From the NCBI GenBank assembly GCA_016188965.1, contig JACPGT010000005.1, positions 65,989-129,988 on the forward strand: a stretch of 64,000 nucleotides of DNA, read 5' to 3'. This stretch comes from Candidatus Micrarchaeota archaeon. Its GTDB lineage: Archaea > Micrarchaeota > Micrarchaeia > Norongarragalinales > Norongarragalinaceae. This document shows, piece after piece, positions 44,244 to 49,701 of this stretch. Position 1 is the stretch's first letter. Every line of letters begins with the position of its first letter. The notes below the pieces were generated by a model. The model searched no databases. It saw only the letters and a list, made by a program, of their open reading frames with translations, and was not told the origin of the DNA. Both the position numbers and the translations under genes were made by a program.

Positions 44244-45686
44244 ATGGACGACCTGCCGTTCGATTCTACCTTGGACGTGCCCATTCCGAAAGACCCGCTG
44301 CAACAGATCATCGGACAGCGGCAAGCCGTGAAACTTGCCACCATCGCGGCCAAACAACGCCGCAACCTCCTCTTGGTCGGACCGCCCGGCATCGGCAAAA
44401 GCCTTTTGGCACAAGCCATCTCGCACCACTTGAACGAGCCAACGGAGGAAGTCTCGGTCCTGCATAACCCCGAGACGCCGGAAAAACCACTCATTGAAAT
44501 CATCACGAAGGAACAGCTAGCGAAAGAGAAGCGCATGAACGCGCAAATCCAAGGCAAACTCGTCGGCCCGAAAGAAGTGCCCAGTTTCGTCGCCGAACGC
44601 CTGGGCTTCCGCTGCCGCCGCTGCGGACGCCTGTCCGACGCCGGCGAACGCGCATGCCCCGGCTGCGGCCTCGACAAGTACACCGCGGCCTTTGGCAACA
44701 CTATCCTCTCCGAATACCTGCAAGAAGCCAAGCCCCAGACGCGCGTGCACACCACCCGCCTGCTGGATGACGGCCGCGAAGAAGTCATCGTCTATGAACG
44801 CAAGGGCGACAACGTCCGCGTCCTGGACCAAAAAGCGCTGGAAAAAATCGACCAACTCAAGAAAAAGAAACCGCGGAAAGTCCTCATGCCGTTCGGACGC
44901 AAGTCGTTCGTCATCGCCACCGGCGCGTCCGAGACGGAACTCTTGGGAGACGTGCGGCACGACCCATACGGCGGACACGCCGGCGTTGGGGTCCAGCCGT
45001 ACTTGCGCGTTGTGCCCGGCTCGGTGCACGATGCCCACCAAGGCGTCCTGTTCATTGATGAACTAAGCTCGCTGGGCCACGTACAACGCTTTTTGCTCAC
45101 CGCCATGCAGGAACGCAAATACACCATCGTCGGCCGCAATCCCCACTCCGCCGGCGCGTCCTGCCGCGTCGAAGACGTGCCGTGCGACTTCATCCTGGTT
45201 GCCGCGTCGAACATCAACGACCTACAGAACATCCTGCCGCCTTTGCGCTCGCGCATCGTAGGCAACGGCTACGAAGTCCTGCTGGACACACATATGCCGG
45301 ACACTCCCGAAAACCGCCGCCAACTCGTCCAATTTATAGCCCAAGAAGTCATGAAGGACGGCCGCATCCCGCCGGCCTCGCGCAGCGCCATGGACGCGAT
45401 TTTGGACGAAGCCCGCCGCCGCGCACGCGTCGTCGACGAGACGGATAACGCGTTAACGCTGCGCCTGCGCGAACTGTCCGGCGTCATCCGCCTGGCCGGC
45501 GATTTTGCCGTCTCGGAAGGAAAAAACCTCATCGAAGAAGACGACATTACCGTAGCCATATCCCGCTCGCGCAACATCGAAGAACAACTCCGTGACCGCT
45601 ACGGCTCCGTGTGGAAAGCAGGGGCCAAGGAATTCCAGACGCACTTGGACAAGCGCGCCGACGTAGACTCCCGAGAGGTGGCTTAG
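44244..45686 (+). CDS. Lon-like AAA+ ATPase without recognisable protease domain, with zinc-ribbon insertion
   Basis: The N-terminus parallels archaeal LonB (IIGQRQAVKLA...LLLVGPPGIGKSLLAQ). Walker B is GVLFIDELSSL, and a CRRCGR...CPGCG insert sits where LonB carries TM helices. At 480 aa it ends before any Ser-Lys protease domain. Confidence 0.65.
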   Translation: MDDLPFDSTLDVPIPKDPLQQIIGQRQAVKLATIAAKQRRNLLLVGPPGIGKSLLAQAISHHLNEPTEEVSVLHNPETPEKPLIEIITKEQLAKEKRMNAQIQGKLVGPKEVPSFVAERLGFRCRRCGRLSDAGERACPGCGLDKYTAAFGNTILSEYLQEAKPQTRVHTTRLLDDGREEVIVYERKGDNVRVLDQKALEKIDQLKKKKPRKVLMPFGRKSFVIATGASETELLGDVRHDPYGGHAGVGVQPYLRVVPGSVHDAHQGVLFIDELSSLGHVQRFLLTAMQERKYTIVGRNPHSAGASCRVEDVPCDFILVAASNINDLQNILPPLRSRIVGNGYEVLLDTHMPDTPENRRQLVQFIAQEVMKDGRIPPASRSAMDAILDEARRRARVVDETDNALTLRLRELSGVIRLAGDFAVSEGKNLIEEDDITVAISRSRNIEEQLRDRYGSVWKAGAKEFQTHLDKRADVDSREVA

Positions 45687-45689
45687 AAA

Positions 45690-45980
45690 ATGCCTAAAAC
45701 GCCCAGAACCAAATCCATCAACCTTACCGGAACCGGACCCATCGGCATGTTCCACCGCCGGTTCACACCCCAAAGCCCTGCCGAACGCTACGCGATGAAA
45801 CCGGGCAGCTGGCACCCCGGGTGGCAAAAACTACCCTTCCACGCCGTTTGGCAAGACAACATCGCCGCCGCCATGAAAAGACGCAACGCGGCAGTCAACG
45901 CCGCAATCAAACGCATGCCCAAAAAAACGAACGTCGTGCCCAACGCGCGCCGAACCATGCGACGGCCTACCCGCCGCTAG
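45690..45980 (+). CDS. Hypothetical basic protein
   Basis: Starts 3 nt after the AAA+ stop. No family recognised. Confidence 0.3.
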   Translation: MPKTPRTKSINLTGTGPIGMFHRRFTPQSPAERYAMKPGSWHPGWQKLPFHAVWQDNIAAAMKRRNAAVNAAIKRMPKKTNVVPNARRTMRRPTRR

Positions 45981-46072
45981 GCAAGCCATGCGAAACCTGC
46001 TTTTTTCACCGAGCGGACGCTTGAAAGAAAAAAAAACGGCCGCGCGATGCGGCGTCTGAAACGGAAAAAAAG

Positions 46073-46498
46073 CTACTTCTTGCGGCGGTGGTGCTCGACC
46101 GCTTTTTGGATCAGCGTGCGGTGGTGTTCTTCCACGCGCGAGTCGTATTCCTCCAGAGGCACGATGACCTTGCCGGACTGGTAAATCATCAACGCGACCA
46201 CGGCCATGCCGAACCAGAACAGGAAAACCGCCACCGGGCCCAGCAAGACGCCGAGGAAGTCCTCGTACGAGAACGAATACACCAAAGCGTTCGAATCGAT
46301 GCTCCAACCGAACAATTGCGGCACCAATTCCGGACGCAGCAAGGCGGCGCGGCCCTTTTCCACCATGACGAACAGTTCGTACAGCGACTGGGCCAGCTTC
46401 AGGACGGCGGCGAAGACGAAGAACGCGCCGGCGACCTTCAACAAATGCAGGCGTCTTCCGCCGACTTTCAACCACATGACCTTGTGCAACATGACCAT
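46073..46498 (-). CDS. Hypothetical membrane protein
   Basis: Three hydrophobic helices. Start chosen at ATG 46498, with a GGGG motif upstream and an ATTTAATAG box about 60 nt upstream. Confidence 0.45.
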   Translation of the reverse strand: MVMLHKVMWLKVGGRRLHLLKVAGAFFVFAAVLKLAQSLYELFVMVEKGRAALLRPELVPQLFGWSIDSNALVYSFSYEDFLGVLLGPVAVFLFWFGMAVVALMIYQSGKVIVPLEEYDSRVEEHHRTLIQKAVEHHRRKK

Positions 46499-46632
46499 CA
46501 ACCCCAAACCGGCTTGACACGGCCTCCGGATTTGCGTGCAGACATAACTTTTCGACGCTATTAAATCCTTGCGAGGGCCGATTTCAGCGGCCACCGGCCA
46601 GCACCCCTCGAAATTTTCTTCTAAGCCAGGGC

Positions 46633-47376
46633 ATGAAGAAAATTCCAGAGGGATGCAAAATGAGCAGGACGGATATTGATTACAACAAAAAAGCGATTCT
46701 AAAATACATGTTCAAACATGCGCGAAGCATCCGAAATCATCGATTTTCGGCAATGAACCTTAAGCGGGCCTACCTAGCGGGGGTAATTTCGGGCGATGGA
46801 AGAATCAGTTGTTTTCCTCCATTTCCTACAAAACACATGCGAACAACCGTGCTTATTTACAACCAGTCCATACCGTTTTTGAATTATCTTAAGGAAATGA
46901 TCTGCAAAGAATTTGGCGTTAACGGCAGAATTAGTCCAAAGAAAGGGGAAAATTGCTTTGAATTGGCCATTTACAGCCGAGCATTTTGGATCTATCTAGC
47001 GAGCAACGTAGACCTGCCACTTGACAAAAAATACCTTCAGGTTCCTCCGTCAATTCAAACAAAAAAACTGTTCAGAGAGTACCTGGCCGGATTGTTCGAT
47101 ACGGATGGATATTTGTCGTACACGTTCGGAATCATGCTATCGAAGCGCAATTTAGGTTACTTGAAAAAAATAAGTATGCTTTGTAGAAAATATTACGGGT
47201 TGCGTTTTGGAAAAATCTCGATAAACGAATTGAGGCAGAATGGAAAAACATATGGCAGAGTAATCATGCACCTCAGAAAAGCGGACGTCCGAGTATTCAT
47301 AAAAAATATACCCCTTCGGCATGAGAAATATATACCGCGCATAGCAAAGGTTCTGAGAGGGCCCGTCGTCGAATAA
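46633..47376 (+). CDS. LAGLIDADG homing endonuclease (double-motif)
   Basis: Two LAGLIDADG motifs, YLAGVISGDGRI and YLAGLFDTDGYL. The gene is visibly AT-richer than its surroundings. Confidence 0.8.
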   Translation: MKKIPEGCKMSRTDIDYNKKAILKYMFKHARSIRNHRFSAMNLKRAYLAGVISGDGRISCFPPFPTKHMRTTVLIYNQSIPFLNYLKEMICKEFGVNGRISPKKGENCFELAIYSRAFWIYLASNVDLPLDKKYLQVPPSIQTKKLFREYLAGLFDTDGYLSYTFGIMLSKRNLGYLKKISMLCRKYYGLRFGKISINELRQNGKTYGRVIMHLRKADVRVFIKNIPLRHEKYIPRIAKVLRGPVVE

Positions 47377-47498
47377 GCCTTTTCGTCCGACGAAGGGGCT
47401 TCGGCTGTGGTAAGACGTCGAAAGTACCTTAGGCAAGCTGAGGCACTTGCGGAACTTTTACACAGCGAAGATCGCCGGTTCGATTCCGGCCGGGCCCA
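47359..47498 (+). tRNA. tRNA-like gene, apparently disrupted by several short insertions (anticodon unassigned)
   Basis: A clean 3' portion: AGATC GCCGG TTCGATT CCGGC CGGGCCC A, followed by TTTT. The only complementary 5' acceptor strand, GGGCCCG, lies at 47359-47365, 140 nt upstream. D-loop-like GTGGTAAGA flanked by GACG/CGTC, and an AAAGT/ACTTT candidate anticodon stem. Confidence 0.45.
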
Positions 47499-47752
47499 TT
47501 TTGAGCAAAACCGCCGATACAACAACGCACGCGTTGTTGTCCGCTGGACTTGGCGGAGGCCAAGTCTTCGCGTCCTGCCGGGTACGTCGCCTAGCTATTT
47601 CGCTTTTCGGTCTACGTTTAATCCATACGCAGAAAAAGAAGCACAGCTCACTTCAATGCGAAAACCAACCATGAAAACCAAGAACCTCATCGCCCTTGCC
47701 GCCGCATTGGCTCTCACCGCCGGCCATTGTATACGTCACCCTGCCCTTCTTG

Positions 47753-47938
47753 ATGGCCATGCCGCTGTCCGCTCACGCCGTCGACGCCTACGTCCTGCAC
47801 CAACAGAACCCATTGATCACCGGCATCGTCATAGGCCTGGCCTTCGCCCTAATCGGCCTTCTGACCTACGTGATCTATTCTCTTTTGCGGCCAACGACTA
47901 AACCGATGGACCGGATGGAGTTGCCTCAAGAGCCGTGA
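47753..47938 (+). CDS. Small membrane protein (possible remnant of a frameshifted longer ORF)
   Basis: Contains the TM helix LITGIVIGLAFALIGLLTYVIYSLL. Its stop overlaps the GTG of the next gene (GTGA). Confidence 0.3.
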   Translation: MAMPLSAHAVDAYVLHQQNPLITGIVIGLAFALIGLLTYVIYSLLRPTTKPMDRMELPQEP

Positions 47939-48351
47939 GACGGCCCATCCAGCAGCGCGCGGCGCCCGTCGCCCTGGCCTGCGGCATCCTGCAGGACGGC
48001 GAGCGCGTCTTTTTCCTCAAACAGAAAGACGGTCAAGGAATCGAACGCATCGGACTGCCGTTCGTCATGCTCTTTGCCGGACAGGACCCCGTCAAGAAGA
48101 TGACGGAATTCTTCCTGGCGCAGACCGGCATCGACGGCCACGTCCAAGACGTGCGCTTCCAGGCCAACCACAACGCCGGTTCGCGCAAGAACAAACGAAT
48201 CATCCCAGTGTTGGGATTCCGCGTGGAAGCCAAAGTAAGACAGGCCAAACCCGCGGCCGGATACTCCGGCTATGCCTGGATGACGCTGGACGCCGCCAAG
48301 AACCAACGGCTTGACCGCATGAGCGAATGGCTGCGCACCATCCAGACCTGA
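47935..48351 (+). CDS. Hypothetical protein, possibly NUDIX-fold with degenerate Nudix box
   Basis: GQDPVKKMTEFFLAQTGIDG only loosely fits G-x5-E-x7-REUxEExGU. Confidence 0.4.
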   Translation: MRRPIQQRAAPVALACGILQDGERVFFLKQKDGQGIERIGLPFVMLFAGQDPVKKMTEFFLAQTGIDGHVQDVRFQANHNAGSRKNKRIIPVLGFRVEAKVRQAKPAAGYSGYAWMTLDAAKNQRLDRMSEWLRTIQT

Positions 48352-49587: not shown

Positions 49588-49701
49588 GCCGCAGTAGCTC
49601 AGCCTGATCGCCGCAAATCTGTTTTTCTAGTTTACGGCGAGGCTTAGGAGAGCAATCGGCTGAAGACCGATATGCCGGGTGTTCAAATCACCCCTGCGGC
49701 A
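49588..49701 (+). tRNA. tRNA-Phe (GAA) with ~41-nt intron in the D-loop
   Basis: GCCGCAG TA GCTC AGCCTG[intron]GA GAGC A ATCGG CTGAAGA CCGAT ATGCC GGGTG TTCAAAT CACCC CTGCGGC A. The intron forms the TCGCCG/CGGCGA helix. A TTTAAATT box lies 30 nt upstream and a T-run follows downstream. Confidence 0.8.

Follow-up and report, generated by a model that had tools for sequence, protein, structure and literature searches.

A 64,000-nucleotide (nt) stretch of DNA from a Candidatus Micrarchaeota archaeon (the window, to whose forward strand all locus coordinates refer) carries a LAGLIDADG gene that runs into the 5' end of an intron-interrupted transfer RNA (tRNA) gene, tRNA-Val(UAC) (Table 1). Its open reading frame (ORF) is the only one in an inserted segment of ~750 base pairs (bp), hereafter the cassette, whose right boundary coincides with tRNA position 1. 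At 40.5% G+C, the cassette is the lowest-G+C 748-nt segment of the whole 64 kb and lies about 5 standard deviations (sd) under the mean (59.1%, sd 3.4 for 748-nt windows). The ORF itself has 41% G+C, which bears out the AT-richness relative to the surrounding DNA remarked on in an initial annotation.

The ORF reads 15 nt of the first tRNA exon, and its stop codon TAA consists of the first three nt of intron 1, so that 18 nt of the tRNA gene are covered in all. As the initial annotation had claimed, the overlap falls on the 5' acceptor strand of the tRNA. GGGCCCG (47359-47365) is the true 5' end: it is the exact complement of CGGGCCC (47491-47497), which comes after a canonical T-arm, GCCGG TTCGATT CCGGC, and the orthologous tRNA-Val genes open with the same GGGCCCGTAGTCGAA. 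The additional claim that no other sequence could pair there was slightly overstated, since GGGGCTT at 47395 allows ARAGORN to build a one-intron model. We rejected this model: two positions of its acceptor stem do not pair and another forms a G-T wobble, and the orthologues start at GGGCCCG.

Table 1. Features of the tRNA-Val(UAC) locus and of the LAGLIDADG cassette (window coordinates).
Feature	Position	Strand	Basis or remark
Host promoter block of the tRNA-Val locus (putative promoter)	46541-46578	+	conserved in endonuclease-free relatives
TATA-like TATTAAAT	46559-46566	+	within the host promoter block, now 5' of the LAGLIDADG cassette
LAGLIDADG cassette, inserted low-G+C segment	46611-47358	+	absent at the syntenic site in L045, L046/47, L048 and L049; present in L050
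Perfect 10-bp hairpin, AATTTTCTTC / GAAGAAAATT	46612-46644	+	inverted repeat in the cassette 5' leader, enclosing the first ATG (46633)
LAGLIDADG endonuclease ORF (putative), 247 amino acids from the first ATG	46633-47376	+	ORF list, Pfam, PDB profile search
LAGLIDADG motif 1, YLAGVISGDGR, putative catalytic D55	46768-46800	+	alignment
LAGLIDADG motif 2, YLAGLFDTDGY, putative catalytic D158	47080-47112	+	alignment
TATA-like AAATATATA within the ORF (codons for EKYI in HEKYI)	47326-47334	+	33 to 25 nt before tRNA position 1
tRNA-Val(UAC) gene, 140 nt	47359-47498	+	exons 47359-47373, 47408-47420 and 47455-47498; anticodon TAC 47459-47461
Intron 1 (predicted), 34 nt, D-loop, position 15/16	47374-47407	+	bulge-helix-bulge check and MAFFT against four orthologues
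Intron 2 (predicted), 34 nt, anticodon stem, position 29/30	47421-47454	+	bulge-helix-bulge check
T-tract right after the tRNA	47499-47502	+	read from the sequence

The double-motif character of the ORF ending at 47376, recognized in the initial annotation, is supported by a match to Pfam LAGLIDADG_3 (E 1.3e-9, above the curated cut-off). In an alignment of five sequences (the window ORF and four non-self homologues from the protein database), G54, D55 and G56 are invariant, as are L151 through Y160 except position 154; both putative catalytic residues, D55 and D158, are thus kept. Motif 1 aligns with LLGLIWGDG of I-DmoI and LAGFIAGDG of PI-PfuI, and motif 2 with FIAGLFDAEG of PI-PfuI. Profile searches of the PDB return the PI-PfuI endonuclease domain (E 3e-12) and I-DmoI (~1e-7). 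An AlphaFold2 model (predicted local distance difference test, pLDDT, 71; predicted template-modelling score, pTM, 0.74) contains two alpha-beta-beta-alpha-beta-beta-alpha halves in the expected order of elements; its best Foldseek matches are PI-PfuI (1dq3), I-DmoI (TM ~0.70) and I-Tsp061I (2dch), and weaker ones include bI3 maturase and WhiA. Taken together, sequence and model describe a predicted intact, monomeric, double-motif enzyme of the I-DmoI/PI-PfuI type with putative cleavage activity. Translation likely starts at the ATG at 46660, giving 238 amino acids (aa): a Shine-Dalgarno-like GAGGG (46648-46652) precedes this codon, the 238-aa cluster P0001 backs the later start, and ATGAGCAGG is conserved in a related metagenome contig, L050 (comparison loci are denoted by L numbers).

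The tRNA gene is missed by ARAGORN on the raw sequence of 47359-47498, whether run with default settings or, at the default score, with introns permitted in the anticodon loop, and lower thresholds return noise. Rfam, at E up to 10, gives just a weak, partial tRNA-Sec-like match at the locus. The default ARAGORN and Rfam searches fail because two introns interrupt the gene. Once 47374-47407 and 47421-47454 are excised, ARAGORN recognizes the remaining 72 nt as a tRNA-Val(tac) in which all 7 bp of the acceptor stem pair and the D, anticodon and T arms are normal; compared with L046, the exons differ only at C9 and in the variable loop. Acceptor stem and T-arm also form in the fold of the predicted pre-tRNA (z = -4.9).

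Both insertions have the geometry of archaeal bulge-helix-bulge (BHB) introns. Intron 1 forms a strict hBHBh' motif, with a 4/4 central helix (GUCG/CGGC), bulges AAU and UGU, an 8/8 intron helix and an exon helix of 3 bp. In a MAFFT alignment with L045, L046, L048 and L049, it appears as a 34-nt insertion, with a junction that is ambiguous by up to 2 nt (three sliding registers, of which register 1 gives the orthologous D-loop AATGGTA). Intron 2 forms a relaxed motif, with a 3/4 central helix (ACGU/GCGG), bulges CGA and AAC, a 7/8 intron helix and a 3-bp exon helix. Its excision restores the stem TCGCT/AGCGA as found in L046, and an intron at 29/30 is also present in L001. The predicted junctions of the mature tRNA are GUCGAA|UGGUAAG and GACGUCG|CUUUUACAC. 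No further tRNA-Val was found in the 64-kb window.

A second tRNA of the window was likewise missed by default ARAGORN, namely tRNA-Phe(GAA) at 49588-49701 on the plus strand (114 nt). It contains a 40-nt BHB intron in its D-loop (49607-49646; central helix 4/4, exon helix 3, intron helix 6), and its spliced form of 74 nt is called tRNA-Phe. Multi-intron tRNAs and a broad-specificity epsilon2 splicing endonuclease have been reported from ARMAN-1/2 and Micrarchaeota (PMC4033280). Given this report and the D-loop intron of tRNA-Phe, splicing by the host at 15/16 and 29/30 is plausible. Initially annotated as a disrupted tRNA-like gene, the tRNA-Val(UAC) is indeed interrupted, by two spliceable-looking BHB introns; otherwise it appears complete and intact, not broken.

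Related Micrarchaeota contigs supply the uninterrupted allele that the initial annotation had suggested looking for. The locus is anchored by an AAA (Lon-like) protein gene (44244-45686), with homologues 79-91% identical on these contigs, and the relatives share the order AAA gene, opposite-strand small membrane-protein gene, promoter block, short variable leader and tRNA-Val(UAC). In four of them (L045, L046/47, L048 and L049) the LAGLIDADG gene is absent from the syntenic site, and the promoter block, CGCACTTTTAAATCCTTGCGAAAGC, stands immediately 5' of the tRNA leader. Their tRNA-Val is intronless in L045, L048 and L049, and has a single 37-nt intron at the canonical position 37/38 in L046/47.

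A filled site occurs in L050, where a LAGLIDADG gene lies at the same place and reads through into the tRNA in the same way (…GPVVEW*). The host flanks are 85-89% identical between L050 and the window at the nucleotide level, against ~50-60% in DNA and 51% in protein for the endonuclease gene; window 46660-47358 and L050 1529-2226 are diverged alleles. The tRNA of L050 has a single canonical intron, and its 5' half is identical to that of the endonuclease-free alleles. The first ~90 nt of the cassette (leader and N-terminus) are ~88% identical, and this difference from the ~50-60% of the remainder suggests a mosaic allele. Up to the TATA box, the left flanks of L045, without the endonuclease gene, and of L050, with it, are 81-98% identical; L050 is L045-like up to the TATA box and window-like in its leader. 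This pattern hints at co-conversion of flanking markers with the endonuclease gene, although the lineages are not conspecific.

Because four related contigs have promoter, leader and tRNA-Val without the LAGLIDADG gene, the ORF is an insertion, patchy among close relatives and changing or being replaced much faster than its surroundings, as expected of a selfish homing element. The endonuclease-carrying insertion put forward in the initial annotation is thereby upheld, by four empty sites and one diverged allele. We also considered whether the window tRNA had arisen by inverting the arrangement of L001, L002 and L004, where the tRNA is on the minus strand, and dropped this idea when the syntenic plus-strand orthologues and L050 were found.

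The same annotation had offered a mobile intron as an alternative, which does not hold. A cmscan search of 46000-48200 at E up to 10 gave no Rfam match to any group I or group II intron; apart from its overlapping end, the whole ORF is 5' of tRNA position 1, and the two 34-nt introns contain no ORF. A group I intron with its endonuclease inside the tRNA is excluded on the same grounds. No extein flanks surround the ORF, which lies outside any intein context. It is a free-standing gene and not intron-borne. Of the counter-case raised alongside, a free-standing gene inherited vertically, the first half is thus correct; the second is at odds with the patchy distribution.

We extended the comparison to homologues elsewhere. 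Among the four protein-database homologues, three (L001, L002 and L004) have a tRNA-Val(UAC) on the opposite strand, its 3' end inside the ORF end, and the fourth (L003) is cut by a contig end. A further 120 loci, mostly from Nanoarchaeia, Woesearchaeota, Micrarchaeota and Iainarchaeum, were obtained from GTDB genomes, scanned at one per species, and from Joint Genome Institute (JGI) metagenomes. Each was searched for a T-arm followed by 7-bp acceptor closure, and 109 were left once duplicates had been discarded. The 5' end of a tRNA lies at or inside the ORF 3' end on the same strand in 39 loci, a convergent tRNA has its 3' end at the ORF 3' end in 21, and an intronless tRNA-Thr(UGU) stands just upstream of the ORF in 8; the others are long ORFs (inteins or other contexts; 20 loci), loci cut by contig ends (7) and loci without a call (14). 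By these strict automated criteria, a tRNA gene adjoins 68 of the 82 informative free-standing homologues. On inspection at least 7 of the 14 no-call loci have one as well (five tRNA-Leu-like with an extra T-loop intron, one tRNA-Val and one tRNA-Thr), raising the total flush with a tRNA gene to at least 75/82, mostly in DPANN archaea. The background density of tRNA-like genes in the same loci is ~0.07 per kb. A scan of viral contigs returned 6 distant relatives.

Three stereotyped arrangements are thus observed: the gene adjoins the 5' end of the tRNA and is co-directional with it, meets its 3' end convergently, or lies just past its 3' end, again co-directionally. The linked isotypes are Val, Leu-UAG-like and Thr. 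tRNA-Val accompanies the closer relatives of the window enzyme, and in a large group further removed from it the partner is a class II tRNA with UAG (Leu) in its anticodon loop; the label 'Leu(UAG)-like' rests on acceptor/T-arm closure and a conserved anticodon-loop motif, GCTTAGG or TTTAGAC. From their lengths of 101-172 nt or more, one to three introns are expected in these tRNA-Leu-like genes. Within each subfamily, a conserved C-terminal motif of the protein is encoded at a fixed distance from tRNA +1: -33..-19 or -40..-26 in most Leu-like loci, -39..-25 in the window.

Several loci of this set show further peculiarities. Downstream of the ORF ends of L012, L020, L093, L107 and L126, the tRNA-Leu-like genes contain an extra T-loop intron of ~60-100 nt (…GGTTCGAA|…|TCCTGCC…), bringing such genes to up to three introns each. 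The LAGLIDADG subfamily of L018, L026, L067-L074, L087, L088 and L099, with the C-terminus …YYIRF…DF, lies ~50 nt downstream of the intronless tRNA-Thr(UGU) on the same strand. Partial tRNA copies accompany the endonuclease-linked tRNA in L016 (3745-4020) and L040 (1179-1354), as repeated T-arm and acceptor 3' fragments, and in L004 (2829-2860), as a 32-nt 5' fragment; they may be what repeated repair of breaks, or recombination, has left behind. Other long tRNA-like genes, recognized by acceptor and T-arm closure (118-200 nt), occur in related contigs at L046/L047 10261-10450, L055 1060-1259 and L051 262-379. They suggest that multi-intron tRNAs (Phe and perhaps Pro, both isotypes being tentative) are common in these lineages.

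Returning to the window, the block 5' of the cassette is a probable promoter, judging from its match to the archaeal TATA consensus. A second TATA-like element, AAATATATA, lies within the ORF; GATATAAAC is found at the equivalent place in L050, and the element is a candidate internal promoter for tRNA-Val. The hairpin of the 5' leader is kept in L050 (1483-1515), where the enclosed ATG is a GTG, and it may limit translation or mark the end of the cassette. On the other side of the tRNA, the T-tract is a likely archaeal terminator, and the 3' flank, TTTGAGCAAA, is conserved in L046 and L050. A 10-nt direct repeat that brackets the cassette, TGCGAGGGCC (46570-46579) and TGAGAGGGCC (47354-47363), was rejected as a target duplication. 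Its copies match at 9/10 positions, which is at chance level, and it is probably fortuitous, as eleven similar short repeat families occur within 1.25 kb. Further upstream, between the AAA and membrane-protein genes, window 45690-46070 appears to be a variable region: it shows 32-50% identity to L050 and is shorter than the 298-aa ORF that L046 has there.

In the explanation that we consider probable, a free-standing LAGLIDADG homing endonuclease cassette has inserted between the promoter/leader of tRNA-Val(UAC) and the first base of the tRNA, and belongs to a lineage that homes at tRNA gene ends. The enzyme would cut endonuclease-free alleles at or near the junction of the leader, or flank, with the tRNA end, and the gene would be copied in when the break is repaired from an allele that carries the cassette. 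Since the insertion splits the target, the carrier allele would be protected, while the conserved tRNA half of the target would allow the lineage to persist and to move among diverged hosts. The endonuclease messenger RNA would be made from the captured tRNA promoter, with its TATA-like element at 46559-46566. The tRNA would either share that transcript and be released from it by RNase P, or have a promoter of its own in the TATA-like AAATATATA of the conserved C-terminal HEKYI codons. Where ORF and tRNA converge, these A/T-rich codons, read as their reverse complement, would provide a T-rich tract after the tRNA. Both 34-nt introns would be removed by the archaeal splicing endonuclease. A broader reading, to which we give a low probability, is that a large and so far undescribed lineage in DPANN and other archaea homes at tRNA gene ends, with subfamilies specific for Val, Leu-UAG-like and Thr tRNAs, and that its repeated cutting and the ensuing repair are one driver of the tRNA fragments and of the non-canonical BHB introns in the neighbouring tRNAs, whose number is unusually high and changes fast.

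Several points weigh against this explanation. Cleavage, target site, splicing and each step of the mechanism are deduced, and the left boundary of the cassette is uncertain within 46579-46611, that is, not defined to the nucleotide. Leaders vary among the endonuclease-free relatives, and a target spanning the junction must therefore tolerate variation in one of its halves. As the 5' half of the L050 tRNA is unchanged, the target does not lie wholly inside the tRNA. The endonuclease-positive and endonuclease-free alleles compared here belong to separate species-level lineages and were not drawn from a single population. The central helix of intron 2 is imperfect, with one A.G mismatch. Finally, the isotypes obtained with a home-made BHB splicer and ARAGORN are unreliable for many of the multi-intron class II (Leu-like) tRNAs.

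Other readings assign a different part to the introns or to the enzyme. The endonuclease might target the uninterrupted tRNA body, with BHB introns protecting the carrier and being co-converted, so that it would drive the spread of tRNA introns. Within the Micrarchaeota set, the two non-canonical introns are indeed confined to the endonuclease-positive allele of the window, the free alleles having either none (L045, L048, L049) or only the canonical 37/38 intron (L046/47). All tRNA-Leu-like genes beside homologues have a length that implies introns, some of them in the T-loop, and the endonuclease-positive tRNA-Val genes of L001, L005, L006, L007 and L022 are all intron-bearing. However, those of L002, L004, L052 and L053 are called without any intron removal (73-75 nt in L002, L004 and L053; 89 nt, with uncertain intron status, in L052), and L050 combines an endonuclease with only the canonical intron and an unaltered tRNA 5' half. 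Intron positions also differ by locus (15/16, ~21/22, 29/30, 33/34 and 37/38), which leaves no single protected site, and the intron load of these tRNAs has no baseline from DPANN genomes that are free of the endonuclease. A search of the window and of 130 loci for paralogous copies of the introns found none, hence there is no support for intron transposition. We regard this reading as unlikely. Somewhat less likely still is a domesticated, immobile LAGLIDADG protein with a host role at the tRNA locus, for instance as a regulator that binds DNA or as an RNA factor of maturase type, comparable to WhiA or bI3 maturase. The presence of these two proteins among the weaker structural matches, the intact ORF, its conservation across many phyla and its fixed position relative to tRNA +1 would fit such a role. 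It agrees poorly with a gene that comes and goes among close relatives at an otherwise conserved locus, is strongly atypical in G+C for its host, keeps both catalytic acidic residues and has alleles far more diverged than their flanks; moreover, archaeal BHB splicing is not known to need a maturase.

The remaining two readings concern the tRNA gene as such. It could be a decaying pseudogene, damaged by insertions that arrived with the cassette, with a working tRNA-Val(UAC) elsewhere in the genome. The lack of a call by default ARAGORN and Rfam, the mismatch in the central helix of intron 2 and the visible genome of 64 kb are compatible with this. Yet both insertions have BHB geometry, and their exact removal restores all stems, a perfect acceptor and the orthologous exons; the locus is the syntenic tRNA-Val(UAC) site of the relatives, the window holds no second tRNA-Val that could be found, and its tRNA-Phe also has a non-canonical intron. 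We judge decay to be highly improbable. Alternatively, the cassette could be leftover cargo of an integrase-type element (a virus or plasmid) with its attachment site in the tRNA gene. Integration at tRNA genes is a classic phenomenon, and partial tRNA duplications lie beside the endonuclease-linked tRNAs of L004, L016 and L040. The insert, however, is ~750 bp long and carries the LAGLIDADG gene only; it contains no integrase gene, and no piece of the tRNA is directly repeated at its ends. It sits at the tRNA 5' end, 3' of the promoter; more than 70 loci repeat this arrangement of a single gene, and viral contigs yielded only the 6 distant relatives. Such an origin is hardly credible to us.

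If homing at tRNA gene ends is confirmed and drives intron turnover, a selfish element acting at the DNA level would be linked to the origin and turnover of archaeal tRNA introns. The locus touches two open questions, how archaeal tRNA genes gain and lose BHB introns and why tRNA genes attract mobile DNA, and it offers a natural system in which one orthologous tRNA-Val has 0, 1 or 2 introns, with or without a homing endonuclease neighbour, in related Micrarchaeota. The pattern across the family (at least 75 loci, three arrangements, several isotypes) suggests that tRNA gene termini are a previously unrecognized class of archaeal homing sites. The enzymes could also yield new nucleases with long targets that lie naturally in universally conserved genes. 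Loci of this kind will probably be mishandled by automated annotation, since default ARAGORN missed both intron-containing tRNAs of the window and the ORF overlaps one of them.

The nearest characterized enzymes, I-DmoI, I-Tsp061I and PI-PfuI, are likewise archaeal and share the fold, the motif architecture and both catalytic acidic residues with the window enzyme. They are encoded inside ribosomal RNA (rRNA) introns or inteins, whereas the window enzyme is free-standing and intergenic, beside a tRNA, and only ~18-21% identical to them. Its nearest functional analogues are free-standing homing endonucleases of phages. Among these, SegB of phage T4 and others (seg and mob genes) lie in or beside tRNA genes and spread by cutting the endonuclease-free allele and co-converting its flanks. 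SegB, however, is a bacteriophage enzyme of the GIY-YIG family; the window enzyme belongs to the LAGLIDADG family, is encoded in a cellular archaeal chromosome, and its gene is flush with the tRNA end and overlaps it. SegB is discussed in PMC13096335. Another likeness is with F-CphI of cyanophage S-PM2, whose free-standing gene also lies beside an intron-interrupted gene. F-CphI practises 'collaborative homing', in which the neighbouring intron protects the target. The intron beside F-CphI belongs to group I, splices itself and interrupts psbA, whereas those of the window are BHB introns of a tRNA, spliced by protein, and a protective role of introns is unsupported as a rule for all loci. The enzyme family of F-CphI is described in PMC6083498.

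The tRNA itself is of the same kind as the multi-intron tRNAs with non-canonical BHB introns of Thermoproteales and ARMAN-1/2, with two introns and hBHBh'-type motifs; what it adds is that introns turn over fast among close relatives and that the gene of a homing endonuclease is physically linked to it. Nawrocki, Jones and Eddy (2018, PMC6125680) described 39 archaeal group I introns carrying LAGLIDADG genes, all in rRNA genes. As in that set, LAGLIDADG_3 genes of Micrarchaeota, Woesearchaeota and Pacearchaeota behave as mobile DNA; unlike its members, the window gene lies outside the tRNA, with no group I intron detectable. Full-text literature searches, which covered few subscription journals, found no description of LAGLIDADG genes adjoining archaeal tRNA genes. 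The LAGLIDADG family and the class of multi-intron archaeal tRNAs were thus already known, and what appears to be new is a recurrent, isotype-specific, free-standing LAGLIDADG gene that is flush with archaeal tRNA genes and overlaps them.

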